A stretch of 64,000 nucleotides of DNA from Azolla caroliniana (Eukaryota; Plantae; Polypodiophyta): positions 16,678,001 through 16,742,000 of the forward strand of contig JBHGNT010000003.1 of assembly GCA_043228905.1 (NCBI GenBank), read 5' to 3'. A program made the position numbers and the translations under genes. The notes under the pieces were generated by a model, which saw nothing but the letters and a program-made list of their open reading frames with translations, was not told where the DNA came from and ran no database searches. This document shows positions 3,188 to 54,913 of the stretch, one piece after another; position 1 is the first letter of the stretch, and every line of letters starts with the position of its first letter.

Positions 3188-3794
3188 TGTCGTGAAGAAT
3201 TTCGGCCATAGGCGAAAACCGGGAAACATTGGCTACATTGGTGGGGTGCAGCGTGTGTATGCACCCATGTACATTTAGTGTGAATATCGAGGGCGCCTTT
3301 ATGGCGCCAAAGAGTAGTCAAGTCGGGACAGATGATCCCATGTAAGTCGGGATTTGTCCCGCATTGTAATGCCTCCCTTTCCTTGTTCTATAAAAGGGAG
3401 GGAACGCCCTTTGTAAAAGGGTTTCCCATTTTGCATTAGAGGGTATACCGTTAGGTTTAGAGTTAGCTTCTTCTTCTTCTTCTCCTTCGTGTTCGCTTAG
3501 GGTTTGTTGCAGCTCATCTCCTGTGCAAGACCTCGCTCGGCGCGACGAGCCCGAGAGCTCCCCGACGCCGGCTTGGCAGCAGATGACCACTGTAACCTAC
3601 CTCGGTCCGGCTCGAAGCTGGGAATGTATTCTTCTTATATATATATATATATGTATGTTTGTCTGTGTATATTCACGTCGTTGTTGGCGTCGGGTGCTCA
3701 CCCCTTTCCTGCGTTTCCTGTACATAAGGGCGTGAGTCGGGTCAGGCTGTGTGTGCGCGTGTGTGCATGTGTGTGCGTGAGTCGGTGTTAAGCA

Positions 3795-3828
<34 letters not shown>

Positions 3829-6800
3829 CTCTCTCCCTTCGGTTGCTTCCGGTGTGTTTCTGAGATGCCCCAGAAGCAGTGAAGCACGACTTCCTACGCT
3901 CCATCCCTCTCTAGTCCAAGGCCCCCATGGTCCCGCCTTTCTCCACGCACGCGCGTAACAACGCGACATATTTGGTGAACCCGACGTTAAAGGCGGCAAG
4001 GGAGGATGGAGTCGGAAGACGACGACCTTGCGAGATGGTGGCCGGAGTGGTGTTGGAGTCGGCACGAGTAGTGATGAGGCGAGAAGCAGCGCAACAAGCG
4101 GTTGGGCGAGTGGTTGAAAGAGTTGGTTGTTTCAACTGGGACTTTGTCCCATCTAACTTGGAAGCCTACAACGCGGGAATGGAGGAGCGTGGCGTAGACG
4201 AGGCGTTGAGGCTGGAGTTCTTCTGTCGGGTCGTGGCTGTCCGGATGCATGCGGAAATAAAGGAGCTCCGTGAGGCTCATAGTTCGTGGGAGGCCTTCGA
4301 AGAGGCGCTCCTGAAGGCATACGGAGGATGGCGGAAGAGCCGGGGACGACACGACTTTGACCAGTGGGTGGCATCGGCAAAGACCTACCGGGGCGCGACC
4401 AAGGCGTTCCGAGAGTTCGAGCGACGGCTTGCTCGGCTCCCGGAGCGGGAACAAGGTTTGGTGGGGGCGGACAAAATCCTTTTGTTCGTCAGGTCGATCG
4501 ACCGAGCGGAACGGGAAGCCATCGGGATTGAGCTCGAAGACGATGATGGAGCGAATGGGCTTACGGAGGACTGGTCGAAGGTCGGAAGGGTGTGCCAAAG
4601 GCTAGACAACGAGCAAGCCGAGAAGGCTAAGAGGAAGGTACGCGATGGCGTGCCATCACAGCGGGAAGAGGCCGAACGGCAAAGAGAGTCGGCAAGGGTC
4701 GGCATTGGGGCCAGGATTGCGGAGGCGTACGCAGCGCTCAAAGCGATGCTCGAGGAAGAGGGGGGATCGAGGCCAGAAGCTGAGATCGAGGAGACGGACT
4801 TGCCCCACGCGACGGCGGAAGATCGGTACCACGGTACCACGGGAGAGGGTGCGGGACGAGCCACCCTCTCGACATGCGGAGAAAGATCGACCGAGGACGA
4901 GGTCGAGGACGGTGAGGCGGCGATCGCCGATTCGAGCGGACATGAGGGAGGTTGGGCACGGAGGCCCGAAGCATCGAGCGGGGAGAAGACGGGCGGTGGT
5001 GCCGCGACCTTACGCACACCGGGCCTACAGACTCCGGCAACCGGCCCGAGAGCCGGTGTGAGACCTAGAGTGACGGGCGTTGGCGGCGGCAAGGCGGGCG
5101 ACCACGACTGCGACGATGTGGGAGAGGGTGCGGAGAGAGCGACCCTCTCGACTTGCGGAGATAGAACGGCCAAGGACGAGGCCGAGATACAGATCGTGGA
5201 ACCAGAACGTTGGGACCAACGGTTTCGGGCGTGTCAGCCTGAGATCCCGGTCATTGGAGAAGCAAGCCCAGACGGGGCTTGCGCGATCAGTAAGAAGACC
5301 ACCGCCGACCACGAAGAGTCGGGGGCTACGGAGAAGGGCATAAAACGGATGAGTGATTCTTTGTGTCTTCCCACACTTGATCCCAAGACGATGGCAGTCG
5401 GGCCCTAGTACCCACGTGAGTCCCAAGCGGAGGAAGGCGGCGGCGGAGGGCCAAGAATCACCGGCGAGACGATATGGGGAAGGAGCGGACAAAAGCCCAC
5501 GGACCCGATTCCGGAGAACTCGGCATTCGGGCCCGTATGCCCATGTAAGACCGAGGAGATGGATGGCAGTATCGAGGAGTCCTGGAAACGGCCTGCGAGG
5601 AGGTCGAGGACGGACGCGGCACGAGGAGATTGGCCTTCCGATACGGGTAGAGCGTAATCCGGCTGTGGATCGTTCGATCGGGGCCAGAGTCGGCATGAAA
5701 GTGCCGATACGGAAGGGGGTGCGGGACGAGCCGCCCTCTTTTACATGGGGAGAAAGACCGACCGGGCGAAGGTCGAGATTAAGAAGGCGAAGGGCGGTCG
5801 ACGGAGGATCCTTCACACCGGTTCTAGAGACTTCGGCAGTCGGCAACGGGGTCGACGTAAGACCAAGATACTGACGGTGGCGGCGAGGTGACGAAGACAA
5901 TGGGCGTAAGGAAGTCCGGTCCTACGGGATCCCCACACCGGTTCCAGAGACTCCGGCAGTTCGGCCAACGTGGCAACGTGAGACCGAGGGAGAAGGACAG
6001 TGGCGGCTGGAAACGGGACCCGACTACGCGGAAGACACGAGGAGAGTCCGGGAGGGACTCAAACAAAAGGCACCCAAATTTCGGCAAGCATAGAAACGGA
6101 GTCCGGTCCTATGGGACCCTCACACTGATCCGGAGACTCCGGTAGTTCGGCCAACGTGGCAACGTGAGACCGAGGGAGAAGGACGGTGGCGGCAAGGAAC
6201 GGGACCCGACGACATGAGGTTCGGAAGGAGCCGGTAGGGGCAAACGCGAGGAGGTGTGTCAGGCCGGAAAGGCACACCTAGAACAGAACAAGAGTCTCGC
6301 AAATGGCCATCGCGGGCCGGATCGAAGCGTGACTACGGGACGGTGTTCGGCGCGGGCGGGGCCGAATGAAGGAAGCGGAAGACGGCACAAGGGAGGTGCC
6401 AAGAACGAAGTGACAAGTGCCTAGTCGACTGCACAAGATCGGAATCAGGATGGCAACAGAGGTCGGAGGAGGATCCTCCACACTCGCTCCGTAGATCTCG
6501 GTAGCTCCGTCGAAGTAACGAAGACTGACACGGCAAGCCGGGGTGACAAGCTGGTGGGGGCGAGGGGACGACGGCAAGAGGAAGACTCAGGACCTATTGC
6601 AGCAGCACGAGGATGGGAAGGGCCAAGCGGGCTACTACGGGGTGTTCCTCGGATGCAAATGACACCGGTATGCGGGTGAACAGCGATGCACGATCTGGCC
6701 GGAAAAGGGGCCGACGAGGAGTGCAACACGGGCAGTGCCAAACAACGGACTAGGGTATGTGGCACACGGAGGTGCCGGAGCGGGAAGGCGAGCGCGGAGA

Positions 6801-7701
6801 AGGCCGGAAAGGAATCCTCCACATCGTTCCGGAGACCATGGCGGATCGAGCCGACGCGGTAATGTAAGACCATGGAGAAGGAAGGTGGGGGCGGAAGGAC
6901 GACGGCGACGCGAAACACCATCGGGACATCACGATTCGACAACGGAGGCCAAGCGGGCTGCCACGGGCATTCCTCAAGCGGAGGACATCGGGCATACGAC
7001 GGGAAGCGGGGCGTTCATACAGCCGAACAAGGGCCAACGGAAGAACGCGTGCTACGGAGATCGCGACTGAGGACCCATCGACGGGTCGAACGAGCCTACG
7101 GGGAGGCGAGCGTGAAGGAAGACTCGAAGCCTACGGATCAAACCGGCAGCGAGCAGAGATGCGGATCATGGGAGACCAGTTTCTCACCGGCCGAAATCTC
7201 TCACCCTTCAACCAGATTGGCACATACCGGTGGACGTGCAGTTAGGTGGGGGCGGATGTCGTGAAGAATTTCGGCTATAGGCGAAAACCGGGAAACATTG
7301 GCTACATCGGCGGGGTGCAGCGTGTGTACGCACCCATGTACATTTAGTGTGAATATCGAGGGCGCCTTTATGGCGCCGAACAGTAGTCAAGTCGGGACAG
7401 ACGATCCCATGTAAGTCGGGATTTGTCCCGCATTGTAATGCCTCCCTTTCCTTGTTCTATAAAAGGGAGGGAACGCCCTTTGTAAAAGGGTTGCCCATTT
7501 TGCATTAGAGGGTATACCGTTAGGTTTAGAGTTAGCTTCTTCTTCTTCTTCTCCTTCGTGTTCGCTTAGGGTTTGCTGCAGCTCATCTCCTGTGCAAGAC
7601 CCCGCTCGGCGCGACGAGCCTGAGAGCTCCCCGACGGCGGCTTGGCAGCAGACGACCACTGTAACCTACCTTGGTCCGGCTCAAAGCCGGGAATGTATTC
7701 T

Positions 7702-7732
<31 letters not shown>

Positions 7733-7861
7733 CGTTTGTCTGTGTATATTCACGTCGTTGTTGGCGTCGGGTGCTTACCCCTTTCCTGCGTTTCCTGTAC
7801 ATAAGGGCGTGAGTCGGGTCGGGTTGTGTGTGCGTGTGTGTGCGTGATTCGGTGTTAAGCA

Positions 7862-7901
<40 letters not shown>

Positions 7902-8041
7902 CTCTCTCCCTTCGGTTGCTTCCGGTGTGCTTCTGAGATGCCCTAGAAGCAGTGAAGCACGACTTCCTACGCTCCATCCCTCTCTAGTCCAAGATCCCCG
8001 TGGTCCCACCTTTCTCCACGCACGCGCGTAACAACGCGACA
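3188..8041 (+). mobile_element. Element B: non-autonomous gypsy-type LTR element (gag-like ORF, no pol)
   Basis: Near-identical LTRs 3188-3968 and 7257-8041 (TGTCGTG..CGCGACA), PBS TGGTGAACCCGACGT 3973-3987, PPT TTAGGTGGGGGCGGA 7242-7256, TSD CCAG/CCGG. Confidence 0.9.
3927..5408 (+). CDS. Gag-like protein of element B: capsid-like N-terminus, then a repetitive acidic/Gly-rich tail
   Basis: N-terminus (VGCFNWDFVPSNLEAYNAGM..WEAFEEALLKAYG..LLFVRSID..GLTEDW) aligns by eye with the gags of C, D and G; true start codon uncertain. Confidence 0.65.
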   Translation: MVPPFSTHARNNATYLVNPTLKAAREDGVGRRRPCEMVAGVVLESARVVMRREAAQQAVGRVVERVGCFNWDFVPSNLEAYNAGMEERGVDEALRLEFFCRVVAVRMHAEIKELREAHSSWEAFEEALLKAYGGWRKSRGRHDFDQWVASAKTYRGATKAFREFERRLARLPEREQGLVGADKILLFVRSIDRAEREAIGIELEDDDGANGLTEDWSKVGRVCQRLDNEQAEKAKRKVRDGVPSQREEAERQRESARVGIGARIAEAYAALKAMLEEEGGSRPEAEIEETDLPHATAEDRYHGTTGEGAGRATLSTCGERSTEDEVEDGEAAIADSSGHEGGWARRPEASSGEKTGGGAATLRTPGLQTPATGPRAGVRPRVTGVGGGKAGDHDCDDVGEGAERATLSTCGDRTAKDEAEIQIVEPERWDQRFRACQPEIPVIGEASPDGACAISKKTTADHEESGATEKGIKRMSDSLCLPTLDPKTMAVGP

Positions 8042-11000
8042 CCGGATAGATGGATCGATCAGATAGGTTGATCACGAAGATTTTAGTGTGAAAGAACAAA
8101 ATCATCTAGACTAAAAAAACCTAGTAAAAATCTGTATACAAAAGGATGCAAGCAAGGCTTGAACCTTGCACCTTCAAGTTAGGAGGTAGTAAACTTACCA
8201 CTAAGCCAAGTCATTTCTTAAATGTTTTTTCTATCATTATACTTTTACATCTAAATTCTCATATTAGAGCGTTATTGAGTGACATGGTTATCATGCATCA
8301 CATGTAATGCATGAGCGCCAAATGGCAAACATGCATCACATGCATTCCATACATTGTATGCATGTCTTGTACCCTCACATGCATCATATGGATAGGGGCG
8401 TCTATAAAAGAGTGGATGAAAAAGATCAAAGGGAGCTAGGTATGAATCAAGAATTTAAGAAAAAAATTCGTTATCCAATTGATGATATATCTTGTTCCTC
8501 AAATCTAAAGTCAAGGGTTCAATCTTAATCTCTCTCTCCATTTCAATCTCTCTAAATCTAAAGTCAAGCGTTTTATCTTATCTCAATCTCTCTCTCTTTC
8601 AATCTCTCTTAAATACTTTCTCGCTAAATCTAGTGCAAACTTTGAATCCTTCCGGTCCAGAACCCCGGCGGTTCCGCCTCACGATCCGAACGTAGTGAGG
8701 GATTTTTCACGACATTGTGCTAAAGACGAAGGGTCAAGTGTTATCCGTCTTCAAAGAGTTCCAAGCGAGGGTCGAGAGAGAAACCGGCCGAAAACTGAAG
8801 GCAATCCGAGCGGACAATGGCGAAGAGTATCATGGACCGTTCAAGGAATATTGCCGAAATCAAGGAATCTGGCTCGAGTACATCGTGCCGAAGACGCCAG
8901 AGCTTAATGGATTGGCCGAGAGAATGAACCAGACCGTAATTGAAAGGGTCTGAAGTATGCTTGCACATGCTAAGTTACCGAAGACGTTCTAGGTTGAGGC
9001 GTGATAAACCGATCACCCTCAGTACACTTGGACGGTGATATTCCACAAAGGGTGTAGAGTGGCAAAGATATATTGTACCGACATTTGAGGGTGTTCGGCT
9101 ATCTTGCTTATGTGCATGTGGCAAAGGACTAGAGGGGGAAGTTGGACCCGAAATCTCGGCCATGGATATTTCTCGGCTACAGCAATGATGAATTTGGTTA
9201 TCGGCTATGGGACTTAGCCGAGAAGAAAGTGATTAGGAGCCGCGACATTGTCTTCATGGAGGAAAAGACAGTAGTCGACTAGGAGATTGAGAATAAGTCT
9301 CCAACTACCAAATCGAACCGAGTCGACGCTTAGCCGAATCAAGTAGAAGCCGATTCAATTGAAATCGAATCTGAGTCAGTCGGCCGAGTTAATACTCGGC
9401 AAAATCGAGAACTGATTGAAGAGCAAGGGGAAACAGCCGAACAAGGAACCAAATTCGAATTGGCTGAAGAAGTCGATGAAGAACCGACTGTGCCGAATGG
9501 AGGCCTAAGAGAAAGGAGGGGCCCCCAAAGATTTGTGGATGAAGAGCATGTACTGCTAACCGATGAAGGGGAGCCGGAAAGCTTTGAAGAAGCTAAGGAC
9601 GATACCCACAGCCGAAATTGGTTGAGTGCCATGCAAGAGGAGATGAATTCTTTTCATGAAAACCACACATATGAACTGACCGAACTGCCGAGAGGAAAGA
9701 AGGCACTTCATAATAAATGGGCATACAAGATGAAATTGAGAGATGGCGGGAATCCACCCAAGTACAAAGCATGAATCGTCGTGAGAGGCTTTCAACAGAA
9801 GAAGGGTGTCAATTTCAACGAAATATTTACGTCGGTCGTAAAGATGACATCAATTTGAACCATGTTGAGCATCGCAGTCAGCATGGACCTCCAAGTTGAA
9901 CAACTGGACATCAAGATTGCCTTTCTCCATGGAGCTTTGGAGGAAGAGATATGCATGCACCAGCCGGAAGGATTCGTGGAAAAAGGTAATGAAAGTCTGG
10001 TATGCCGATTGAGGAAGAGCTTGTACGGGTTGAAGCAAACTCCTCGGCAATGGTACCGAAAATTTGAATCCTTCATGATTGAAAACGGGTACCACAAAAC
10101 GCAGGCCAATCACTACGTATTTGTGAAGAAATTCGACGGAGGAGATTTCCTCATCCTCCTATTGTACGTGGACGACATGCTGATTGTCGGACGGGACCAT
10201 AAGAAGATCCAAGTGTTGAAGAAAGCCTTGAGCAGATCGTTCTCGATGAAGGATATGGGTCCTGCAGAACAAATCCTAGTGATGCACGTTGTTTGGGATC
10301 GAACATAAAAATTGTTGTGGCTATCACAAGAAAAAGACGTGACAAAGGTGCTCTAGAGATTCGGCATGGAAAGCGATGTCGCGTTGCTACGCGCGTGCGT
10401 GGAGAACAAGGCGGGACCACTAGGGTCTTGGACCGAGGAATAGGTGAGGGAAGAGAGAGAGAGAGAAACGCTCACTCACGTATAACAAAGAGGCGCACGG
10501 GGACGCGGCACAACAACACAGGAGACACGAGTTGAGAACACTAGAGTATGTATGTAAATATAGGCATGTATTTGTAAGAATGGAGATGACTCGAACGGTT
10601 ACAGCCGATCAGGTCGGTGAGGTGGATGCCGACGCCTGATCACCCACGCACATAGGAGAGAAAGATGGAGATTCTGCCGGAATCACACGGGCGTTCCACT
10701 GAGCAGAATCAGCCTCCTGAGAACCTGCGTAAAAGAAGCTATGGAGAATGACAGAGAAGAGGAGCTCGGTCCCAGTCCGACAACACTTCGTTCCTTCTAG
10801 CGCCCCCCCCTTTTCTTCTCTCCCGTCTCCCTCTCTTTTATAGCTCAAGGAGGGAGGCCGCCTTGCCCGTTTACATCACATTAATTCTCTGTCCTTTCGG
10901 ACAGAGATACTCCTCGATTCTCCCTATAGAATATTGCTACCTAGGATCTAACCTTTGTGCCTACCTATCTACTGTACGACAAGGGACATGCCCACGTGTA

Positions 11001-14000
11001 AGGGCCGGTTCACACACACTATACACGGTTTGCGCTTGGGGACGGTTTTCTTCACGACATCCGCCCCCACCTAACCGCGCATCCACCGGTATGCGCCAAA
11101 ATTGGGTTCCTACTTGGAGAAAACCGGTCCTTGCTTTTATTCCTCGTTTACCGGTTCATCCTCCGCCTCGGGCTGCTCGTCGTCGCTGTCCCTGCTTCTT
11201 AGCCCCGGCTCCCCGTCGTGCCGTTTCTTGAACGCTTTGATCCTCTTCCCCGCTACCAGTATCGCCATTCTCGTACCGTCGAGCTCCGCGAGATGGTACG
11301 TCCCATTGCCGTTGGCGCCTGTTACTACGTAAGGCCCGAACCACCTCCTCGCAAACTTCCGTGTGGCCCTGTGCTGATTGTTGAGGCTGTTGTCGTAGAC
11401 TAGCACCCAGTCGCCTTCCTCGATCTTCCTTGGCCTAGACCGGTGTGTTCGGTCGAACTGGGCTTTGTTCCTTATCCTCGCTACTCGAAGTTTCTCCGCG
11501 GCTCGCTCTACGTCCTCCGGCCTCTGCTCGAGCTGTCGAATCCGCGCCGCCAACAGTTCCTCCCGGCTCATCTCATCCCTCCAGTCCACCGTGGCCCACG
11601 AGGAGATCGTTCGTTCTGTTGGCATGATCGGCTTCTATCCGAACATCAGCTCGGTCGGCATGAACCCGGTTACCGAATTGTGCGTAGTCCGGTCTGCCCA
11701 CAAGGCATAAGGTAGCAGCCGTGGCTAGTCCCCGACTCGGCCACCGCACGCCCGTACTAGTGCTTTGACAATTGGACCATGTCCGCGCTCCACCTTCCCG
11801 TTCGCCTCCGGATTGTATGTTGTGGTGAGCGAAAGTTTGACTCGTAGGTCGAACAGCTCTTCGGCCTCTTCTGCGTCCAACTCACCACGGTCAGCCACGA
11901 TCTTCCCTACGCACCCGTATCGGCATACTACGTCCTCAATCAAAAACCGGCACACGGCTGCCGTCGTCTTGTTCTGCAGGGCTCGGCCTTCAGCCTGGTT
12001 CGTTAGATCTTCCCGAGCCAGCACCAGATACCGCATCTGTCCTACCCCCATTGGCATCGTCACCAAATCCACCATCCATTTGAAGTGGACGGTCGGAGGG
12101 TAGGTCCGGTGAAGCTTGTCCCGGTGTCGGATCATGGAGTGCATCTGGCAGCTTTCGCAAGTCGTCACGAACCGATGCACGTCCCGGTATAGACCCGACC
12201 ACCAGTACGTCCCCCTTTAGCTTTTCGAACTTGGCCCACGGGCTATCGTGGTATGCCGCCAGCAAATCCTCCTGTTCCTCCTTCTTCGCCACCACTCGGA
12301 GTGGGATGTCGTTCCTCTTCTTCGGGTGCTTCCAGATGTATCCGTCCCAAAGAAAGAATCGGTAGGCTTTCTTCCGTATCCGGTTGGCCTTGTCCGTTGT
12401 CCATGCCGTGTCCGGTGTCATTGTTTTCAGGAACCCGCCGATCTGTAGCCACTCCCCGTCGTACTTGCTCTCGTCGAAGTCGTTAAGCGTTGGAGACCAT
12501 TCCCCGTTGGTTGTCATGTAAGCCGCCTCGAAGAAGTCCACGCTGACTTCCTCGTCCTCTGAAACCATGCCGCCGTCGTTTTCGAACCTTGCCCTTGAAA
12601 GCATGTTGGCCATGGCGTTGTCTTTCCCGGAAATGTGTCGTATTTCCGAATTCAGGGACTTGATGTACGCTATGCACCTGAGCATTGCCAGGTCCGGCGT
12701 CGCGCATCCGGAAATCATGCCAAGAATTGGCAGGCAGTCCGTCTCGATAATTACCTCTGCCCCGATCAGGTAGTCTTTATCGGCCTTTACCGCCGAAACG
12801 ATACCCCAGAGCTCGCGTTTAACCTGGGCGTATCCTCGTTGTCGCTCACTGAGGACCTTCGCGCCAAACCGGATCGGGAAACACATGCCGTGCTCGTCCT
12901 CTTGGTTAACGACCCATCCGATCCCGGTCGGACTCGTGTTTACCGTTACGTAAATTGGAGTGCTCTTTCCGTAGACAGCCTTTCGGAGCGCCGGAGCGGC
13001 AGCAAGTGCTTCCTTCATCTTCCGGACAGACTCCGTATGCTCGTCTCTCCACTCGAATCTTCGCCCCTTTTTCAGCAACCCGTATAACAGCTCCGCGATG
13101 TGAGCGTAATGCGGGATCCATATGTGGTAGAACGTGCACGCTCCCAAGAACCTCCGAACCTCCGTGACCGAGTTGTAGTCGTCCTTCATCACAGAGATGG
13201 CTTCTACCTTAGCCAGAGACGGTTTTGGGCCGTACGACCCGCATAGGTGTCCGACGACCATGATCTCTGCTTGCCCGAAGGCTGATTTTCCCCCGGAGAA
13301 GGTGAGCCTCGCGCCCTCCAACCTCCGTAGCACCTTCTCGCAGTCATCGATGTGCGTCGCCACGAATTTCCGGCACCCGTCCGGTATGATCGTCTCGTCC
13401 CTATCCTCCACCGGGCATCCCTTGATCGGGACGTCATCCAAAAATGGCATGGTGATGTCCGGGATACAATCCCTCAACACCTTGTTCATTGTGTTCACTA
13501 TGTGAGCCACCGAGTTCGTCCCTCCTTGCGGTAGGGTACACATCTGTACTAGGCCGAGAGGAGTTCGCATTGTCGTGATGTCTCTACTTTCTATGGCTAG
13601 CTGGAACTGATCGTAGCCCGAGTAGAGATCACCGACCGAGTAAATTGACCTTCCGGCGAAGGCCTCTGCGAACTCGTCTATTGTCGGTGCGATTCTTGCG
13701 TTTCGAATGGTCACCTTGTTGACCGGCTGTAGGTCTTGAATAAAGCGCAGTGTGCCGTCCTTCTTCGGCACAGTAAACCACCGATTCGAGTATGGGGCAC
13801 TCGACGGTTCGAGGATTCCCATCTCGACCTTCTGCTTTAACAGCTCCATCAGCTTCAGGATGTGAGCTCTGGGTACTGGAATCGGTTTGAGACTCCACGG
13901 CACATGCGGTACCATGAATATCACCATCGGTTCCACGACCGTCGGGTCTACGCACCCAATCTCCTCCGGTGAGAATGCGAAAGCCTTCCCGTGCCTTTCG

Positions 14001-14089
14001 AGCATTTCCGGAAAACGGTCCTCTTCTGCTAGCAGTAGGAAGCCGCCCCCACCGATTTTGAGCTCGCACAACGTTATGTCGGTGAACGT

Positions 14090-14817
14090 TGTCGTAGTGT
14101 ATTTTGTACACTACGTGAAAAACGTATATAGTATTAGATTCAATAAAAAATGAAGAAATAGAAGAAAATAGCAAAATAAATGGAACATGCATAGGGCAAG
14201 ATTCGAACCTTGCACCTCCATGTTAATAATGTAATGTCTTACCATTACACTAGCATTTCATTAGTGTTAAAGCATAGATGTCCCACATAGAAAGGTAAAT
14301 TCACGCTAGGATAAACATTAGAAAAACGCATAACAAAAGAAAAAACTACACATACACATCTAGCATGCATGATAAAAAACGCACAAGTTAGAAAAAAGCA
14401 TGATCACTTTAGATAAAGCATATAGTCTATCTATAGGAAAAGCATGGGGTCTATAGTTAGAGAAAAAGCATGGATTACTAAGACTTCCTCATCACTACAT
14501 AAGGATGGGGAGCACAATGTAATTGTGTGTGAAAAATATTTGGAAACTGGATATGTTTCTAAAAAACACCAATTAATAAACTATACTCGTGGGATTCACG
14601 AGAATTCTATATCATTCTCTTTCAACCGAAGTTTATATTCTTATATTCATATTGATTAATCTAATACAATACACTTGTGGGATTCACGAGTTTGCTATAA
14701 CTCTTTCTTACAACATATTTATATTCTTATTAGCCTTAAAACTCTCCTCTTCCTAGTCCAAAACCCCAGCGGTTCCCACCCGACTCACGCAACGATCCGG
14801 AGCCGAAAGGCACGACA
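14090..14817 (+). mobile_element. X2: solo LTR of the gypsy D family, inserted in the pol of C
   Basis: TGTCGTAG...GCACGACA termini, perfect ACGT TSD (14086-14089 / 14818-14821); both ends match the reverse complement of 18011-18912. Confidence 0.88.
14194..14262 (-). promoter_or_regulatory. tRNA-like A-box/B-box (Pol III type) module inside solo LTR X2
   Basis: Minus strand TAGTGTAATGGT..GCAAGGTTCGAATCTTGC; homologues at 8148-8215 (-) and 18505-18568 (+). Confidence 0.6.
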
Positions 14818-17800
14818 ACGTGTCTCCTATGCGGGCCGGATTTCGTAAACTCGGGTCCGACGCAACCCCCTTTATTCGCAACTCGCTGCCCTCCGGCAAG
14901 GGAGCCGCGACTGGCCTCACCTTCCGGTCCACAGTCTTGTACCTCGTGTCCACCGGGGCCGTCCGACCCGACTCGAGCCCTCTACTGAAGTCCGCGATGA
15001 CTTCGTACATCCTTTCCGAACATATCGGAATCGTCCGGTCCTCTTTAAGGACTCCTCCGATTACCTCTCACAGCTCCCCCAAGGTATCGTCGAAAGAGAC
15101 CGTCTCCACGGCTCCGTTGATTTCCTCTCCAAGGCCGAGGACGCCACATGCCCGAAGTCGCTCCTCCGCCCTTTTCTTTTTCCGTCCGACAACGTCAACT
15201 ATCGTACACCCTCCGTTGTCGGAGAAGCAAAATTTCCTACTTATAGTACAGGGTTTCTTCGCTATCTTACACTAATTGTGGGGTTCTCCCGAAGTGTCCG
15301 GACTATCGCGGCCCCACGCCTTGATAGCCCTCTTCAAAAATCCTCCCGGCTTTCGCCCCCGAGGGTCTCGTGGTTCCTCTCATGGTTCGGTCTCACCGTC
15401 AGGAACTGGACCGAGTGGCGCCCATCCTGGCTCTTGATCCTCGCATAGGCCGAGCCGTTGTCCAGCACCTTTGTCTCCATTTGTGCTGCCGTGATGTACG
15501 GTTCTCCAAGTATAACCGGATGTGAGGACGTCTCCTGTACGAAGAAGTGTTGGTCAATCTCGACATCGCCGATCTTTACTCGTACATTCGGGCAGGCTCC
15601 ATGCAGTTCCTCGGTGGCACGCGTTGTCGCCCGTATTTTCCACCCATGCTTGGTGTTGATCGGCCATTTCCCCTTCTTATAGAAGTCCATGGACATCAAA
15701 TTGATTTTTGAACCGTGGTCCACCAACGCCACCACCGGTTCATGAACATCTCCGATCTTCACGGGGGTCTCCGTGGTTACTCTGGCCCAGTGCGGCCTCA
15801 AATAGTGGCTCTCCGCCAACTCGTCTTCCAACGCCATGTCCTCTATGTGCGTCGTCCACACCTCCACCGGCTTCTCCGGTTCTGTCTCCGTCGACAACCT
15901 CTTCCTCTTCACCCACTCCATGAAGTCCCGCTTCGAAAGTCGAAGCGCATCTTCAAGCCCGTATCTTTTGAGGAGCCGACCTTCGAACTCCTCCCAGGTC
16001 CGGCTCTCAGCCCGTACCTCGAGCACCTCCGTATGGATGCCCGGCATCGCCACTCGAGGGAATCCGGCTAGACGCCTCTCTTCCGGGATGTCCCTCATTA
16101 CCATCTCAGCCCGGTAGGACGCCAAGTAGCTTGTGGCATCCTTTCCACTAAACCAGCCGATCGTACCAACAACCGCCTCGATAGCCCTATCCAGGGCTCC
16201 GGTGCCTTCGCGCGCACTCACTATACGGTCTACAGCCGAAGCCATGGCTTCTGCATGGTCCGACCCCCTCATCTTCTACTCCTCTGCCACCTGTTCACGT
16301 CGGGTTCACCAAAGATGTCGCGTTGCTACGCGCGTGCGTGGAGAACAAGGTGGGACCACTAGGGTCTTGGACCGAGGAATAGGCGAGGGAAGAGAGAGAG
16401 AGAGAGAGAGAGAAACACTCACTCACGTATAGACAAAGAGGCGCACGGGGACGCGGCACAACAACACAGGAGACACAAGTTGAGAACACTAGAGTATGTA
16501 TATAAATATAGGCATGTATTTGTAAGTATGCAGACGACTCGAACGGTTACAGCCGATCAGGTCGGCGAGGTGGATGCCGACGCCTGATCACCCACGCACA
16601 TAGGAGAGCAAGATGGAGATTCTGCCGGAATCACACGGGCATTCCACGGAGCAGAATCAGCCTCCTGAGAACCTGCGTAAAAGAAGCTATGGAGAACGAC
16701 AGAGAAGAAGAGCTTGGTCCCAGTCCGGCAACACTTCGTTCCTTCTAGCGCCGCCCCCTTTTCTTCTCTCCCGTCTCCCTCTCTTTTATAGCTCAAGGAG
16801 GGAGGCCGCCTTGCCCGTTTACATCACATTAATTCTCTGTCCTTTCGGACAGAGATACTCCTCGATTCTCCCTATAGAATATTGCTACCTAGGATCTAAC
16901 CTTTGTGCCTACCTATCTACTATAGGACAAGGGACGTGCGCACGTGTAAGGGCCGGTTCACACACACTATACACGGTTTGCGCCTGGGGACGGTTTTCTT
17001 CACGACAGCGCGAAAGCAATCGGCTCGACACTGCCGACAAACTGCAAGCTAAGCGAAGGACAATGTCTGAAACCGGAAACCGAGAATGCCGAGATGTCAA
17101 AAGTTCCTTATGCCTCAGTGGTTGGAAGCCTGATGTATGCGATGGTATGTACCATGCCGGACATAGGATATACAGTCGGCATGGTTAGCCGATACATGAG
17201 CAACCCTGGAAGAGAGCATTGGGTTGTTGAAGTGGATACTTCGGTACCTAAAACGCACCTCGAACGTGTGTCTTCGTTTCGGTTCAAGTAACCCCACACT
17301 AGAGGGTTATATTGACTCGGACATGTCGGCTGATGTGGATACCAGCCGATACACGTCCGGGTAAGTAATGACTTATGCAAGGGGAGTCATTTCATGGCAG
17401 TCTAGGCTGCAGAAGGCCATGGCGTTGTCAACCACAGAAGCCGAATATATGGCCGCAGCGGAAGCCGACAAGGAAATCATATGGATGAAGGATTTTATCG
17501 GTGAGTTGGGAATTCGGCAAGAGGAATTCCAACTCCATTGCGATAACCAGCGTGCCATTCACCTTACGAAAAATGTTGCCTACCACTCGAGGACCAAACA
17601 CATCCAGAGAAGATATCATTGGCTCCGAGAGCGAGTAGAAGAAAAGGAGTTTGTTCTAGTGAAGATCCACACGGCCGAAAATGGATCGGATATGCTGACG
17701 AAGGTGGTGTCCGCCGAAAAGCTAAACGCACGCCAATAGAGAGTCGGTTTGGTGAAGTACCCCATGCCAGAGTGAAGAGGGAGTTTGTTGGGAAACATGT

Positions 17801-19491
17801 CCCTCTAGATAGGAAGAGAAGTACCATGTTGGTGAGTATCGAATGGGAAGAGAAGTACCGTGTTGGTGAGTATCGGATGGGAAGAGAATTACCGTGTTGG
17901 GAGTTTGTTGGGAAACATGTCCCTCCGCATCGGAAGAGAAGTACCATGTTGCTGATGATGGTGTCTCTGTATCTTCCACGTAAAATGTCGTTGTCTCTAT
18001 GTCTTCACGTTGTCGTGCCTTTCGGCTCCGAATTGTTACGTGAGTCGGGTGGGAACCACTGGGGTTTTGGACTAGGAGGAAGGAAAATTCTAAGGCAATT
18101 AAGAATGTGAAATATATTATGAGAAAGAAAGATATGAAAAACTCATGAATCCCATGAGTATAGTGTATTAGTGAGTACTCAAATTAAGAGAGAATAATAG
18201 TTAGCAAATTCGTGGATCCCACGATTATATTATATTAATCAACCCTTGTAAAAATAATCAACAACCTCTTAGACTATACATCTTTCTCTCTTCCTTATAT
18301 AGTGTTGGAAGAGTCTAAGTTTATCACATGCAAGCATCATGCTTTTTCTATCTTTAGTTTTCATGCACACTGCATGTGCATGATTAGCTTTCTATCTCAT
18401 CTTTTCTTTTTAACTCGAGTGTCTATGCATGAATAACTTTTGTACCATGCATGTCTAGAAATTTTACACGGAATAAAGTTTAGTATAACTCTAAAATTCA
18501 TGATACCCTACTATAATGATAAGGCTTAACATTATTAACATGGAGGTGCAAGGTTCGAATCTTGCCCTATGCATGTAATATATATATTTTTATACTTTCT
18601 TCTATTTACAAATACGTCTCTTCATCCGGTGAGAGACTCTCACCGGCCTTCTTCATCCGGCTCTTTCCGGTTCTATTTCATCCGGTGCTTGATAGTTTTC
18701 TTTGTCCGGTTCTTACCGGGAACTCCTTACCGATCTCTTCGTCCGTTTCTCACTGACTCTCACCGGCCTTCTTCATCCGGCTCTTGTTGGGTCTCCTTGC
18801 CGGTTTCGGTCCTTACCGGTTCGTTCTTCCGGTTCTCACCGGGTACTCCATGTCCTATCCGGAGAGACAAAAAATGTAATTTTTCACGTAGTGTACAAAT
18901 TACACTACGACACTCGCCCCCTCCGAACCCACACATCCTCCGGTATGTGTCGAAGTCCCCGATGCTTACTATTCACCTTCATCCGAAGCTTCTTCCGATT
19001 CTCCCCTTAAGTCGACGATGAGTTCTAATCCACTTTCTTCGCTTTCTGCATCACCGCGATCTTCGTCCGATTGCTCCTTCTGGTCGGTCTTGTCTAGGAC
19101 ATAGGGTTCTTCATCAGTCCGCTTCTTGAAAATCTTCACCCGTTTCCCGGCTATAGGCACTCGTAGCATTGTTCCATCTAACTCGCATAGTCGGTAAGTT
19201 CCGTTGTCGAAAACTTTCCGAACCTTGTATGGTCCGAACCACCTTTTCGCGAACTTCCGCATCGTTGTATGTTGATGATCCAAACTACTGTCGTAGACAA
19301 TCACCCAATCTCCTTCTTCAATCTTCCGCGGTCGTAGTCGGTGCTTTGTGTCGAACCGGCTTTTATTCCGGAATCGCGCTTCTTGTTGTCGGCGTATTGC
19401 TTCCGCTATGTCTTCCGGTCTTCCCTCCAGTTGTCGTATCCGGACCGCTAGTAGTTCTTCCCAGCTCATCTCTTCCTTCCATGGTAGCATT

Positions 19492-24827: not shown

Positions 24828-27800
24828 GCATTGTCCATGTCACGATTACGGTTTCCATCGGCATTACCGGTGCTTGTCCGGTCATGAGTTCTGCCGGCAT
24901 ATAACCGGTTACGGAGCTATGCGTTGTCCGATCCGCCCATAGTGCATACGGAAGCATCTGCATCCAATCCTTCACCCTTCCGTCGCATGCTTTGGCAAGC
25001 GCTTTGACGATCGAACTATGTCCTCGCTCGACCTTCCTGTTGGCTTCCGGATTGTATGTCGTTGTTAGTGTTAATCAAACTCCATGTTTGGCGAAGAATC
25101 CCCTAGCTTTATCAGAGTCAAGTTCTCCCCGATCCGCAATCACTTGTCCTACGCACCCATACCTACAAAACACTTCTTCCGAAAGGAATTGGCATACCGT
25201 AGAACACATTTTCCTCCGTAGCGCCTGACCTTCTACTTGATTTGTGTGATCTTCCCAAGCTAACACCAAGTACTTTTGTCTGATCCCGGTTGGCATGGCT
25301 ACAATGCCGACCATCCATTTGAAGTTGATTGTCAGTGAGAATGTCGGAAGTAACTTATCTCGGTGTCGAACTCCGGAGTAGATTTGACACTTCTCGCAGC
25401 TTTCTGTGAACTCCGCGACATCTTTGTACATATTTTTCCACCAATATCTTTTTGCTTGATCTTCCCAAATGTTGCCCATGTTCCCCGATGTCCAGCCCAA
25501 TCAGATTTGTGAAATTCGGACATTACCTAGTTTCGTTGCTCTTTTGTCCTGAGTACTCGAAGTGGTATGCCACCCGGTCTTTTCGGCTCCCTCCATAAAA
25601 TTCCATTTTTCAAGAAGAACTTTCGGACTTGCCGTTTCTTACTTTGGATCTCGGCTCTCTTCTCTTTATTGTCCGATGATTCCTCGATTTCTCGTAGCAT
25701 TTTCCCAATCAACAAGCTTTCTCCCTCGTATTCTTCTTCCCAGAATTCTTGGATTACATCCACCCGGCATATGCGCTCCAAAGCAAAGTAGTCTTCGGAA
25801 ACTTCTTCATTATCGGATTTGGTTATGCCATCTCCGAACCGCGCCCTTGATAGCATATCCGCTACAGCGTTGTCTTTTCCGGAGATGTGTCTTACCTCCA
25901 GATTAAGTGACTTAACATATGCAATCCATCTTAGCATAGCCACATCCGGTATCGTGCAACACCGCATCATCCCAAGTATCGGAAGACAATCCGTTTCAAT
26001 CACTACTTCGGCTCCAATCAAATAATCTCGATCCGATTTGATTGCTGACACGACTCCCCATAATTCTCTTTTAACTTGTGCATATCCACGTTTCCTTTCA
26101 TTGAGAACCTTTGCTCCGAATCGGATCGGATATCGCGAACCTTCCGGATCAGCTTGATTGATGACCCATCCGATTCCTGTTGAACTTGTGTCAACCGTTA
26201 CTATGATCGGTTGGTCATAGTTCGGCTTCTTTAGTGCTTCTACCCTCCGTAGTGATTTCTTAAGCTTCTTCACGGCTTTGGTATGCTCCGGTTTCCATTC
26301 AAAATTCTTACCCTTCCGCAACAAGTGATAGAGTGGGTCCGCTATATGTGCATAGTGTGGAATCCATATGTGGTAGAATGCACATGCTCCAAGAAACCTT
26401 CGAACTTCGGATTGTGACTCGCATACTTCTTTCATAGCTCGAATCACATCGATCTTGGTTGGTGACGGTCTTCGGCCGTAGGGCCCACATAGATGTCCGA
26501 CTACCAATATTTCTTCTTGTCCGAATGCCGATTTCTCTCCGGAAAGTGTTAGATGCACATCTTCTAACTTCCGTAACACTTTCTCACAATCACGGATATG
26601 GTTGACTACGAACCTTCGGCATCCCCGTTCATCCATAGCTTCATCTTTTTCTTCCACCGCACACCCTTTTATCAGAATGTCATCTAGGAACGGCATCGTT
26701 ATCTCTGGTATGCAATCCCGGAGCACCTTGTTCATCGCATTCATCATATGTGCGACTGAGTTCGTCGCGCCTTGTGGTAGCGTACACATCCCGACTAATC
26801 CTATCGGTGTCCGCATGGTAGTGATGTCTCGGCTCTTCACAGCTAGTTGGAATTGGTCATATCCGGAGTATAGGTCTCCGATGGAGTATATTGCGCGACC
26901 GGCAAATGCTTCCGCAAATTCGTCCACTATCGGACCGACTCCGGAGTTCCGGATCATGACCTTGTTCACCGGTTGCAAATCTTGAATAAATCGGAGTGAC
27001 CCATTCTTCTTCGGAACCATAAACCATCGATTTGAGTACGGAGCATTTGATGGCTCTAGAATCCCCATCGCCACCTTCTCCTTGAGCAAGTCGATGATTT
27101 TCGGAATATGCGCCCGTGGCACTGGAATCGGCTTCAGGTTCCACGGCACATGGTCAATCATGAAGATCACCATTGGCTCCACTATCTTCGGGTCAGCGCA
27201 TCCTATTTCTTTCGATGTAAATGCAAATGCTCTCCCATGTCGCTCTAGCATCCCACGAAATCGTTCTTCTTCATTCTTTAATAGGAACCCACCTCCACTG
27301 ATCCGAAGTTTCTTCCGGGTCTCATCCGTGAAGGCATGTCCGATATCCACGGATTTCCGAAGTGTCAGATCTCCCGAGATTTCTTTCCTCTTTTGTTCGC
27401 TAAAAGCGGGTAGTGGTCCCGCGGCCGGTTTCACCTTCTTCTCCACGGTCTTGTATTTCGTACTTACCATTGCTTCTTCTTTGCGGAGCGCATCCGGCCC
27501 CATTTTCACAATGATCTCGTACATCTTGACCGACTTCACCGGAATTACCCGGTTTCCCTGGCTTGTATCTTCCGCGAGCTCTTCAAGCCGTTGTAGTGTG
27601 TTTCCATAGAACACCTCTTCGACTATGCCCACGATTTCTTCGTCTTCTTTTATTATTGATGTCGATCGTAACTTATCCTCCACTTTTCGGTATTCTTTCT
27701 TCATTCCTCCGGTTACGGCCGTCTACGTGGATGCCCCATCCTGACCGATTCGTACTTGTTTTGCACCGAGAGGTTTCTTCCTGTGTGGGGTATCAGGGCT

Positions 27801-28288
27801 TCTCGGACTATCACTTCCCCACTCCGCAACAATCCGCTCTAAAAATCCATTCTTGTTTGGGACAAGAGCTCTCTCTTGTTCCTTTCATGATTTGCCGGCA
27901 CCGTTAGGAATTGGACGGATTTCCCTCCGTTTTGGCTCCAAATTCGTGCAAAAGCCGCACCGCTATCGAGCACCTTCGTCTCCATCCGTGATGCCGTAAT
28001 AAAACGTTGCCCGAGGGTCACGGAATGTGAGACCTCATCTTGTACGAAGAAATTTTGGTCGATCTCGACATCCCCAATCTTCATCGTCACATCCGGACAA
28101 GCCGCAAATAGATCTTCCGTTGCTTTAGTGGCCGCCCGGATCTTCCACCCATGATTCGTGTTAATAGGCCACTTACCCTTCCGGTAGAATTCCTTGGACA
28201 TCAAGTTGATCTCCGATCCGTGATCAATCAATGCTAGCACGGGTTCTTTGATGCTACCGATTCGAACCGGAGTCTTTGTAGTTGCGCG

Positions 28289-49480: not shown

Positions 49481-52400
49481 TCACTCACATTTGATAGATC
49501 GGTAAATGTGGCGAACAAAAAGTAGAGAAGCTCTAAAACCTACAGAACCAAGCATTAGGAAAAACCCATAACAAACACAAGCCATGTAGCCAAAAAAGAA
49601 AGATGTCTGCATAAAACCAGTCATATCTGAGCGAGCAAAGTAGTAGTAAAAACAGTAGCCGAAGACGAATACACCTGTCGAGCCTCCACATAAAACAGAT
49701 CTGCATTTAAATGAAATGCACGTTAAGGTCCATAAACATCACTTCAATATAAATTTCTATAGCCTTGAATACTTCATCATGAATTTTAATATGATCCACA
49801 TATCTGATAGTGCAAAATATGAGATATTTTATAGTATGATATACTGCTAACTAATTCCGAACAATAGAGAGCATTAAGTATTAATGTCATGCATGGCCAT
49901 ATGTGGAGATAACCCATAAATTGAAACACCCATAATAGGTAACACTCAAAAATACATCTCAAATTGTTGTTTTTTACATCAATTCAAAAAATAATCACAA
50001 ATATTAACAGCAGGAAACTTCTCCAGTTAGCATTACGGGATATAATGAATAATACCCATCTACAGGTTGAAACCAGTATGGCAATTTTTCAGAACAATAA
50101 ATTCACACTGTAGACTTCACATGTGCTTAAGTCAGAATCCCAAATGTATCCTGCAGTCTTAGCTTAAATCTAAATATAACAGACTGAGAAATCTATCAAG
50201 TTCACTCTAAGCAGACGCAAACCTAGTAAACTGTTTATAACCTATCTTATCACTCCTCCCAAAATGACTCGCCTAGTTGCCATCATCTACCCACTACGAG
50301 CGTAAAACTATGTCCTCTCTTCATTAGAGACACTTAGCTCTTAATGTTAAGTCTATCAATTAAACAAAGCTAGTCATTTTGATAGCAAAAAGTTGTATTG
50401 CCATGAGTAAAGAATTTGACCAACAAGTAGACACGTTCTTACCTCCACCACCACTCATGATCCTCCACAGCCAGTTGAAAATATGTCAGAGCTATTGTAA
50501 TAAAAGCAGTCACAATTATCAGGATAATGAAGACGATGGAAAGAATGCTATAGATGGTGTAGACTTTGTGGCCCCAGACACTCGCAAAGATATAATATAG
50601 CTCAATATAAATTGCACTAAAAGGTAAAAATCCTGCCATGGCCATTTGTGGTATTGTTCCTCTATACCAAGGTAATTGAGGAATCTCCCGTGGATACTTT
50701 GTTGTGCGACAAGGAGCTTGAAATTCCACTTTGCTATTTTTTCCCGCAATTCCTCCCAAAACAAGAAGGGGTGATGTGACCAAGGCCCAAATAAGAAGAA
50801 TCACAATAATGGTTCCAAAGGGCAAAGCAGCTGTAGAATTATAACTGATAGCCACAGTATTCAAGAAACAGAATGTCAAGAACAATGGCCCACAAAATAA
50901 GCATCCTGTGAGCAGCAGATTGCGTACCTACAAGATGAATGGTTTTATAAGTTTATAACATCAGAAACATTGCCTAACACTAGTGAAATTCCAAACCTAG
51001 AAGTATCTTTACTACCCCCATAGTAACTTGTAAGTCTTAATCTCACCCAATTTGTTCCTTCTAGTTGTCGATACATAGATGCCGCACTATATCCCGCGAT
51101 TCCTGATGTAAGGGCATAGATAACAACAAGAGCTGTGAAGAGTGCCCCACGATTGTAAGGGTAGAAGACACCAATTAGAGCTAGCAAGAAGATAAAGATG
51201 GCACTGCATAACAAAAGGCAGAAGGCATATAAATAGTACTTCAGAAACGAAGTAAAAACAGAAGGGAAAATTTCTGAGATACCCAAGTTTTCCTTTATTT
51301 CACCAAATGCCTCTAAGTTTTCATTCTTTCCACGAACAACACTGGTCAGCCGCCGAAAGAGAAAATGTATGAATCAACCATATAATTACACAAATCGCAC
51401 ATATAATTGAGGGAATGGGGAATTAGCAAACAATATCATTTCCCAATAGCAAATATAATTGCTCTTTCATGGGTCGACCAATGTCATTGAGGGAACTTAA
51501 CTCAGGACACAAGGGGAATTAGAAGTTTGAATATATCACAAAAATCCTAAAACAAAATGAGAATAAACTCAAAGTCACTACAGAGGCAAACTCATTGAAC
51601 CATTTCTCATAAAAGAAAGATACTCACAGTGCAAGCAGCTGAGAGCCACTGCCCAACACAGCACAAAACAAAGACTTATTTGGTGGATATCTAAAAACAT
51701 CTCCATGAATATATTTCCAGCCTGTTTCCTCCTGATCATCTACAGCCTCATCATCCCGAGTATATCTAAATGATGGATCAACAATTTGATCAACAAAGAG
51801 TGTTAAAACAAAAATAAAATTTTAATTGGGAAAAGAACATTCACTGCATCATTAAAAATGAAATACATAGGTACCATCCTTACTTGATAAAGTCGTTCTT
51901 CAAAACTCGCATTAGAATTGTAGCAAGGAATCCGGTAAGGAGAAGCACTGTAACACATGAATTAATGATAGAGAACCAATGGATTTCTAGATGTTGAGGC
52001 AAGAAAGAGGACTTTGCATATTTCTCCATCCGCTTATCAAAAGTGATATCAGTTTCTTTCCACTTGACAGAGTAATGAAACTCCACTTCTACCTCTTTAT
52101 CATCTGTTATGTCTACAACATTGCTATTATCTGAAGCGACACTAATTTCTATGACTTTGTCATCATTATAAAGAACTTCGAAAGGCACGTGTGTGAACAG
52201 ATAATATTTCATCTCAGTTTCATCCACTTTACCAATGAATCCCCATAAGGGAAGATCATCATAATACATTTGAAAATAGTAATCCTGCTTCACAGCATCT
52301 CGGAATTGTCTTACTTCGTCCTTGCTAAGTGTTTTCTTGCATATTGATCCAAACTGCTTGTCCTCCCTGAAATTCAACTGATAGTTCGATTGGACCATTC

Positions 52401-54913
52401 GATCTCCATTGAGAACCTCTCCAAGATCCTCCTTCTTCTCTGTTATTTGTACTGCAATATGTAGATGCCTTAAGTATCAATGCATACATAGAACACATTC
52501 TAAACACAAGGAAGAATGTTGAAAGAAGTCATTCAGAACAAAATAAGCTTACCAGGGGGACAAAAGGGAAGGTTGAAGTACCTATAAGTTTCACTGCAAA
52601 TTACATCCAACAAACAGAAGACGAGTTCAGAATGTGTTGATACTTAATGATAAAATAATGCAATATTATATTACATTCAACGAACAAAAGCCCACGAAAT
52701 GCTTGTTTCAGGAACTAGATACTGATGAGAAAAGAATGCATATCAGTGTTCCATTTAGACTCATGTTTTGGGATACCCAAGACTATTCTGTTATGGAAAA
52801 CAGACACAAGAATCTACAGACACACCAGATGAAACCAAAATGCCCTTACATAGATCAAAGCCTAACATTTATAAAATGTCTTCCATTGAGACCATTTAGA
52901 ATTCAAACAAGTTGTATACTAAATGTATATCCCTAACCCGTTATTAAAGTCTTTCAATTAAGTCTTTCAATTAGACCCATTAAGAATACAAGCAAGTTGT
53001 ATGCTAAATGCACATTCCTAACATGCTACAAAAGTCTTTAAACAGGACCATTTAGAATACAAGCAAGTTGTATGTGCAGAATAGATCTCAGAGCACATCG
53101 AAATCAAAGGCTATCGATTAAAGTCATAGCTTCGACATACATCCCTTGCATGTTATGAGGTCAAATCTATGGATCAAAGCCACAGGTTCTATACATCCCT
53201 GAAGTATTATGTGTCCTCTAAAATAAGACCATTAGAATGATTCTCTCAAATAGACCATTTGAATCATTCTCCCAAATAAGATTATTAGAATGATTTCATC
53301 ACATAAGACCATTAGAGTGCATGCTTGTTCTATGTAGAGTGAGATCTTAGAACAGAACAACCCACATGCTATGGAATATCAAGAACATGGACTCCTTTAT
53401 TTCAATAACAGCATTAGAACATAGAGATAACCCCAACTTTTTCTTTAGTTCCCTAAATGCCCCTAATTTTTTTGTTATATCCCCAAATGCTCTTGGTCAA
53501 CCCCAACTTGCACTCCTGCTCAATTCACCAATTTTTCTCTCTTGAAGTCTTGATCAGGAACATTTGGAGGAAATAACGAGAGCAAATGAGATCTCAAGCC
53601 ATACTGAGATAAAAACATAAATATGGATCAACGAAAGAAATCTACATATATCCTTACCGCATTGTGTCCTCATAACTCAGGTGTAAACCAAACCCACAAA
53701 GATTCTACGTAAAAACAAACATGCTACAATTTATTTCACAAAGCAATTAGAGCATTGGAATATTTGATATGCAAATGAGATACTTATAATAAGACACACA
53801 CATATATAAAGTATTCAAACAATTCCATTAGAATATAATCAGATTAGTCATGCAGGGAGATATATATCAAAATGAGGCATTGAAGTTTCAAAGCTAAAGG
53901 CTTATCCATATCCCTAGCACATTAGAAAAGTCTTTCATTTCCACAGGATCATTAGAACGTAAGCAGGTTGTATATATGCTAATATGGTCTAAGCTCAGAT
54001 CAAAATTTAAAATGTTGCTATGGAATATCAGGGCACAGGTTCTTTAAACATATTGCCTTAACACTTCCACAAAATTCTTTCAGATTTTACGTACTTTTTC
54101 ATTTCAACAAGACGCTTAGAAAATAAGAAAAGATCCATGTCACAAAAACACTAGGGACGATCAAACCCATAGGTTTTACATGTAGGATTAACTTTTTAAT
54201 TTGTCGTCCTAATTTTTGTATGCATATTGTTAGAAAACCTTTGATTTCAACACCACAATCACAACATAAACAAGCTATATGAGCAGATGAGATCTCAGAC
54301 CAGATCAAAGCTAGATCTCCTCGGTGTATCCCTGACTTGCATGTCTGAAGCCAGTATCCATATCAAAATGTAGCTAAGTAACATCAAAACCATAGCCTCG
54401 TGCTTTCTATATCTCTAACAGGTTAGAAGATTTCCTTAAGGTTCTAATCAGATTCCATATAAAGTCTTTTTCTTCATCAGAACCAATACGACTAAAGAAA
54501 GTGAGATCCAGATCAGATCAAAGCAATTGCTTATTTCTCCAGATGTCCATAACTTGCCACAAAACAGTTCCAAGCTTCTAAGCAGATTGATTTATATACG
54601 TAATCAAGCAAGATCTCAGATCAGACTCGTTACAAAATTCTTACAGATTCTAAGCACATAAACGTGTGTGTATGTATGCGAGAGGCGAGAGGAAATCTGC
54701 ATCAACATATTAAAGAATGCGAAACAAAAACCTGGGGTTCTGGAAAGGTCCGATCTTGTTAACGTAGAGCGGAACAGGTTCACCTTTGTTAAACTTGTGA
54801 TCAGAAGGCGAGGCAACAACAGAAGGGAAGACGTCTACTACAAGTATAAGAAGAAGAAGAAGAAGAAGAAGAAGAGAGAGAGTCGGAGTCGAAGAAATGG
54901 CAGGAACCGCCAT
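49481..54913 (-). CDS. Transmembrane 9 superfamily (endomembrane protein 70 / nonaspanin) gene, Arabidopsis TMN2/3/4-like, 596 aa
   Basis: Seven GT-AG exons: 54732-54913, 52553-52593, 51884-52451, 51628-51765, 51047-51203, 50443-50927, 49481-49700 (total 1791 nt). Signal peptide; motifs NKIGPFQNPSETYRYFNLPFC, IHWFSIINS, GWKYIHGDVFR, EDHEWWWRS; C-terminal IKCE (KxD/E Golgi retention motif). Confidence 0.95.

Follow-up and report, generated by a model that had tools for sequence, protein, structure and literature searches.

The retrotransposon in the window

The window (i.e. the whole stretch of 64,000 nucleotides of Azolla caroliniana DNA that was analysed) is composed mostly of stacked LTR retrotransposons. 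On the minus strand is a Ty3/gypsy element bounded by a 5′ LTR (TGT...ACA) at 16316-17007 and a 3′ LTR at 10377-11059, the two being 96.8% identical (660 matches and 22 mismatches). The element is flanked by a 4 bp target duplication of the NCGN type containing one mismatch (GCGC / TCGC), and is nested in a copia element on the plus strand, within the part that encodes RT (9334-10376 and 17008-17739). A primer-binding site at 16294-16311 on the minus strand is complementary to the 3′ end of tRNA-Trp. The tRNA 3′ motif that is complementary to this site is present at 63 positions in the genome, and all six that were tested were tRNA-Trp(CCA) genes. The motif is clustered at G000:C8:17796786-17823371 (14 matches at a spacing of ~1.2 kb) and at G000:C16:4989495-5105657 (19 matches), which suggests tandem arrays of tRNA genes; locus L010 sits within the latter cluster. 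Another element in the window, on the plus strand at 3188-7915, has LTRs that are 97% identical and the same tRNA-Trp primer site, with just a gag-like ORF, and is possibly non-autonomous. On the minus strand at 50439-52476 are what we take to be the exons of a host gene, resembling the transmembrane-9 (endomembrane protein 70) family.

The gag-protease ORF of the gypsy element (15334-16272, minus strand) encodes 312 amino acids with the C-terminus ...ESREDF, compared with open frames of ~710 amino acids in its relatives. Its match to an aspartyl protease is weak (PF13650, E 0.0098, below the cut-off). Downstream on the same strand the RT, RNase H and a broken integrase extend over 11137-14089, the reading frame at their start being -1 relative to that of the protease. 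The RT-RNase H ORF matches PF00078, PF17917 and PF17919, and an integrase zinc finger is also matched among the ORFs downstream of the protease. No Pfam match to a chromodomain or to aRH was found in the five ORFs scanned from this decayed copy. The pol frame is broken by a solo-LTR-like insertion of 728 bp on the minus strand (14090-14817; TGT...ACA, with a 4 bp duplication ACGT). Ends related to those of this insertion are met again near 18006-18593, oppositely oriented.

An earlier note on this DNA had taken the -1 frame to run into RT apart from stops that looked like point mutations. RT is indeed found at -1 (locus L001), but the first -1 stop (15274-15272) is no point mutation, because it arrives with a 3 nt insertion (TTA-like, at 15272-15276 on the minus strand) that comparison of copies shows to be private to the window copy; it is absent from the other 29 copies shown. 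This insertion may be a footprint left by excision of a PIF/Harbinger element. A second pol-frame stop lies at 15070-15068. The copy in the window is decayed; with its short gag, the stop-bearing insertion, the second stop and the 728 bp insertion it is unable to make full Pol.

The tRNA-Trp primer site and the 4 bp NCGN duplication are hallmarks of Phygy, a clade of non-chromovirus Ty3/gypsy elements defined by these two features (Neumann et al. 2019, PMC6317226), and we describe the window element as Phygy-like. In the available text of that survey the clade is known from Physcomitrella only, and its ORF layout is given as ND. The layout found here, i.e. GAG-PROT overlapping RT-RH-INT, appears in none of the 15 gypsy rows of Additional file 5 of the same survey. 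The family is one of mosses, liverworts and ferns, those protein relatives that carry a name being from Physcomitrium, Riccia and Adiantum, and the protease is 61-68% identical to Physcomitrium proteins. A possible link to the fungal Ylt1 elements was considered, and no relationship to the Phygy-like elements was established.

A slippery heptamer and predicted pseudoknot at the protease/RT junction

On the minus strand the gag-protease ORF ends in G GAT TTT TGA, as the earlier note had said, with the stop codon at 15336-15334. The slippery heptamer G_GAU_UUU (GGATTTT) occupies 15337-15343, and is separated from a predicted H-type pseudoknot by a spacer of 6 nt, of which the TGA forms the first half. 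In the predicted structure stem 1 comprises 8 bp, formed between the 5′ strand GGGCTATC (15323-15330) and the 3′ strand GATAGTCC (15300-15307). Stem 2 comprises 6 bp, with GTGGGG inside the loop of stem 1 (15312-15317) pairing to CCCCAC (15278-15283). All lie on the minus strand, and the spacer and both stems were found as originally described. The same signal is present in a second, diverged Phygy-like family in the window (27785-27848, minus strand; ~68% protease identity), where G_GAU_UUU is followed by UAG, and a stem 1 of 11 bp is predicted together with the same stem 2.

When the 81 nt of the window junction were folded singly, stem 1 was found with a z score of -1.9, and 7 of 200 shuffled sequences were equally stable. 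Single-sequence folding is blind to pseudoknots. Since this result is only modest, the case rests on comparison.

The frame offset is conserved

The protease-end motif VQFLTV, which does not presuppose the signal, has 3,661 matches in the genome, compared with 96 for the reversed-pattern control. GGATTTTTRR (where TRR admits TGG too) follows directly after 3,062 of these, with none for the reversed-pattern control. We pooled 221 loci from the Azolla genome, metagenome contigs and one genome bin, a redundant and nonrandom sample, of which 215 were assessable and six were dropped. Ninety of the 215 were set aside because they have no normal protease tail or long open frame. In the remaining 125 junctions the protease tail is normal and a frame other than that of the protease is open for at least 200 codons; this frame is at -1 in 112 and at -2/+1 in 13. 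The earlier note had held that protease and RT lying in one frame would count against its reading. None of the 215 assessable junctions has this arrangement, the protease frame nowhere continuing in frame for more than 150 codons, and the reading survives. Where RT could be matched, it lies at -1 in 125 of 144 GGATTTT junctions, and at +1/-2 in 18 of 21 GGTTTTT junctions. The 19 GGATTTT copies with RT in other frames are read as decay. Eight pattern matches were obtained in viral contigs, none of which was confirmed as a relative. Among prokaryote genome contigs there was a single locus (L221), a signal-bearing Phygy-like element in a cyanobacterial genome bin that is probably plant DNA inside that bin.

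Two of the 125 junctions, having no Phe codon near the stop, were dropped, and the other 123 were clustered at 85% to give 25 types. We retained 23 of these, removing L205 (deletion in the stem) and L207 (mis-anchored). Gag and protease form one ORF that ends just past the heptamer, with RT-RH-INT following at -1 after a short overlap. All 21 types with pol at -1 keep G-G(A/G)T-TTY; G_GAU_UUU is found in 19, and the variants are G_GAU_UUC and G_GGU_UUU.

The ends of database proteins can be compared with this arrangement. Among 118 gag-protease proteins 89 are of the ORF type, with 59 ending in DF, four in NF and 19 in PL or PF; those ending in PL or PF mostly carry DF ~5 residues earlier. The 29 that are gene models have variable ends, and the Physcomitrium models, known from the protein alone, join across the junction.

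Both stems of the predicted pseudoknot covary

Testing for covariation in aligned copies, the check proposed by the earlier note, bore out its structure. The alignment of the 23 junction types is free of internal gaps. With no structure supplied, RNAalifold recovered stem 1, with double changes at six of its eight pairs. When the whole pseudoknot is taken, pairing is possible in 81.6% of 391 cells, compared with 73.4% on shuffling and 40-46% for slid controls. Double-change cells number 42 against 17.3 when shuffled and are found in both stems; this was reached in none of 500 shuffles, although because the 23 types are related and the loci redundant these counts are not probabilities. At fixed register 74.6% of stem 2 cells pair, a low value because loop 3 varies. 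Between types the letters of stem 2 are swapped wholesale (GTGGGG/CCCCAC, GAGGGT/ACCCTC, GCGAGA/TCTCGC and CAAGG/CCTTG). Its 3′ strand occupies four registers and two codon phases, the register having been picked for each type by the analyst, and in several types stem 2 is merely 4-5 bp. Using a simple stacking score, the best H-type pseudoknot bettered all but at most one of 60 shuffles in each of the 23 types, and scored above all of the 10-15 control windows that were taken per type from its own pol ORF. The predicted pseudoknots of the 23 types begin 4-8 nt from the heptamer, mostly 5-6 nt. On these comparisons both predicted stems covary across diverged families.

It could be argued that the frame was broken by a chance mutation, and that the stems reflect a constraint on the protein or some other role such as packaging or dimerisation. 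The window copy is after all decayed, its fold alone is unremarkable at z -1.9, and the overlap encodes a recurrent WG/P motif. Yet thousands of copies and 21 diverged types have an identical frame offset, and the distance from heptamer to stem is constant across all 21 -1 types. Moreover the pairing persists although the encoded peptide varies freely, and stem 2 shows changes of codon phase in its 3′ strand. The covariation appears largely to have refuted this explanation already, and we find it hardly credible.

Probable programmed -1 frameshifting between protease and RT

The frame offsets, the heptamer and the covarying stems support the reading of the earlier note, that this is a programmed -1 pro/pol frameshift. 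From the sequences we consider that G_GAU_UUU and the predicted H-type pseudoknot very probably direct such a shift, and that it is common to the Phygy-like elements. Most ribosomes would terminate, generating Gag-PR. A minority would stall at the pseudoknot on GAU UUU, whereupon tRNA-Asp and tRNA-Phe would slip one base back from GAU UUU to GGA UUU, and the slipped ribosomes would synthesize Gag-PR-RT-RH-INT. As most ribosomes would stop at Gag-PR and only a minority shift, the protease would be made 1:1 with Gag; RT and integrase would be rationed and co-packaged. The sequence features of a canonical -1 site are present, i.e. a heptamer in the upstream frame and within the ORF overlap, a downstream ORF at -1 with no shared start of its own, and a predicted structure mostly 5-6 nt downstream (5-9 nt being canonical). 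G_GA is a documented variant of the XXX triplet in umbraviruses and dianthoviruses, and the statement that G GAU UUU is a functional dianthovirus heptamer is borne out by the available text of the same source (PMC5009743). Readthrough of the stop codon was rejected as an explanation, for the protease frame closes again within ~4-30 codons.

An intron spanning the junction could instead be spliced out to join Pol to Gag-PR, with the structure regulating the splicing. There is a precedent for this in the Ogre elements (PMC6317226, in the text available), and gene models of Riccia and Physcomitrium fuse protease to pol. However, the joining points of the fused models differ widely, and the protease and pol ORFs run into one another in overlapping frames, leaving no room for a spacer; nothing is found here of the non-coding stretch with conserved splice sites that separates PROT from RT in Ogre-type elements. 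GTRAG donors are present in only 3 of the 23 junction types, at differing positions. No spliced joint is listed in 354 polyA reads over the junction of a related family (depth ~9-19 per run), a weak test based on ~12% of each of three runs of one study at ≥85% identity on both strands; joints in run X5, which is probably DNA, were ignored. With neither a conserved donor nor a listed joint, an intron across the junction, to which the earlier note had drawn attention as the arrangement contrary to its own, finds little encouragement. Splicing would also leave unexplained why the heptamer is conserved and why its distance from the stem is fixed, and we regard it as very improbable.

Outside Riccia the protein databases reflect the same division. 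Of the 120 pol relatives, found in a search that covered proteins of ≤2,000 amino acids (which is near the size of a fused polyprotein), 86 are not Riccia gene models, and only one of these carries the protease. It is carried by 25 of the 34 Riccia gene models, known from the protein alone. A more distant relative of 1,374 amino acids (P0118), known from the protein alone, has protease and RT in one chain; it is possible that this is an in-frame lineage or a mutated copy.

A sister clade with pol in the -2 frame

The earlier note recognized the signal itself, but overlooked its spread through the clade, the likeness to Phygy, the decay of the copy, and a sister clade in which pol lies in the -2 frame. 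Two metagenome loci end CAG GTT TTT NAC TAG, with pol at -2/+1 and open for 826 codons. The G GTT TTT clade motif has 86 exact matches in the genome (control 0), and the loci of the clade (L138, L141 and L171-L190) lie in genome and metagenome contigs. Of the first 20 genomic copies, 16 have RT at +1/-2, two at -1 and one in frame 0, with no RT found in the remaining one; the -1 frame meets an immediate stop in 19 of them. The same pseudoknot is predicted, 1 nt nearer to the heptamer (i.e. with a 5 nt spacer).

The -2 elements form a single clade with a support of 100/100, and -1 lineages are found on both sides of the midpoint root. In a tree with L170 added the -2 clade is placed beside two -1 types, one of which has G GTT TTC; this has just 74% support, and so a stepwise path from -1 to -2 is not shown. 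Comparison of RT between the -2 sub-types gives a dN/dS of about 0.05 (dN 0.052, dS 1.1), indicating strong purifying selection, so that Pol is likely to be made. RNA reads matching a -2 element number nine in total, none of which crosses the junction.

G_GUU_UUU is the -2/-1 site of PRRSV, where a -1 shift also encounters an immediate stop (PMC6675879, in the text available). The optimal spacer for a -2 shift is 1-2 nt shorter than that for -1 (PMC3458567, likewise), and the cases of -2 shifting given in the available text of a 2016 review are phage Mu, the arteriviruses and Trichomonas virus 1 (PMC5009743). As at the arterivirus site, the sister clade has G_GUU_UUU with potential re-pairing in the A site at -2, together with a long -2 ORF. 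The C-rich stimulator that arteriviruses have 10 nt downstream is absent, and the predicted stem 1 occupies its position. Thus the heptamer and the immediate -1 stop of the -2 clade both resemble PRRSV nsp2TF, but whereas PRRSV needs nsp1beta and PCBP on the C-rich motif 10 nt downstream, the -2 clade has a predicted covarying pseudoknot 5 nt downstream. We think it reasonably probable from these sequences that the nested clade represents a natural switch of slippage from -1 to -2.

Pol might alternatively be made separately, by termination-reinitiation or internal initiation, with the pseudoknot serving that process. In every one of the 22 GGTTTTT junctions an ATG in the pol frame precedes the protease stop by 17-29 nt. 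However, its position is unlike in the two -2 sub-types (-17 and -26). Such ATGs stem from the Asp-rich tail, and five of the 21 -1 types have an ATG in the same frame that is unused. Furthermore the -2 clade has retained a slippery heptamer, altered to a known -2 motif. Among the -1 types a pol-frame ATG at or before the protease stop is found in just 1 of 21, and none is shared. As an account of the elements in general we give separate synthesis of Pol very little chance, it being plausible mainly in the -2/+1 clade; within that clade reinitiation is unlikely, and a +1 shift or other route is less likely still. The +1 shift was judged less likely than -2, there being no re-pairing of Phe in the majority sequence G GTT TTT GAC TAG.

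Comparison with known frameshifting systems

The proposed -1 signal resembles that of the umbraviruses and dianthoviruses in having the same G_GAU_UUU heptamer with a stop close behind (PMC5009743, in the text available). Those viruses use a stem-loop together with pairing kilobases away, whereas the Phygy-like elements, which are nuclear retrotransposons, would rely on an H-type pseudoknot that is compact and local. Among the retroviruses, pro/pol shifts (Gag-PR to Pol in Rous sarcoma virus, and pro-pol in MMTV and HTLV) are likewise -1, have a pseudoknot and occur after the protease. Rous sarcoma virus encodes its protease in gag, and uses tRNA-Trp as primer. The Phygy-like elements differ from the retroviruses in being plant LTR retrotransposons with no env, another heptamer and a single shift.

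Within the plants, the Tat elements Ogre and Retand also have the break between protease and RT; in these the two parts are separated by a spacer with an intron or by one in-frame stop, in contrast to the overlapping frames and slippery site of the Phygy-like elements (PMC6317226, in the text available). A 2003 survey of gag/pol recoding, as recounted in the available text of PMC5009743, included plant elements with +1 arrangements only. In the literature that we searched, which was mostly open-access and included the available parts of PMC5014426 and PMC7466625, no description of a Phygy-type signal was found.

On balance we favour the view that the Phygy-like elements of seed-free plants have a clade-wide pseudoknot-directed frameshift, and that one living sub-lineage has changed from -1 to -2 through loss of a spacer base and acquisition of the arterivirus G_GUU_UUU. 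If this is true it supplies the missing ORF layout for a whole clade of plant retrotransposons, makes a covarying family of pseudoknots available to work on frameshifting in plants, and explains the inconsistent introns that gene predictors have invented in Phygy-like elements. The two sister lineages, -1 and -2, have the pseudoknot in common, and what separates their signals is a single base of the spacer and a single letter of the heptamer. Engineered spacers at the HIV U6A site have shown the direction of slippage to be set by spacer length alone (PMC3458567, in the text available), and these natural sequences could test whether the same holds here. The -2 clade would then have a natural -2 frameshift driven by an RNA pseudoknot, and would put the mRNA-tension model to a natural test.
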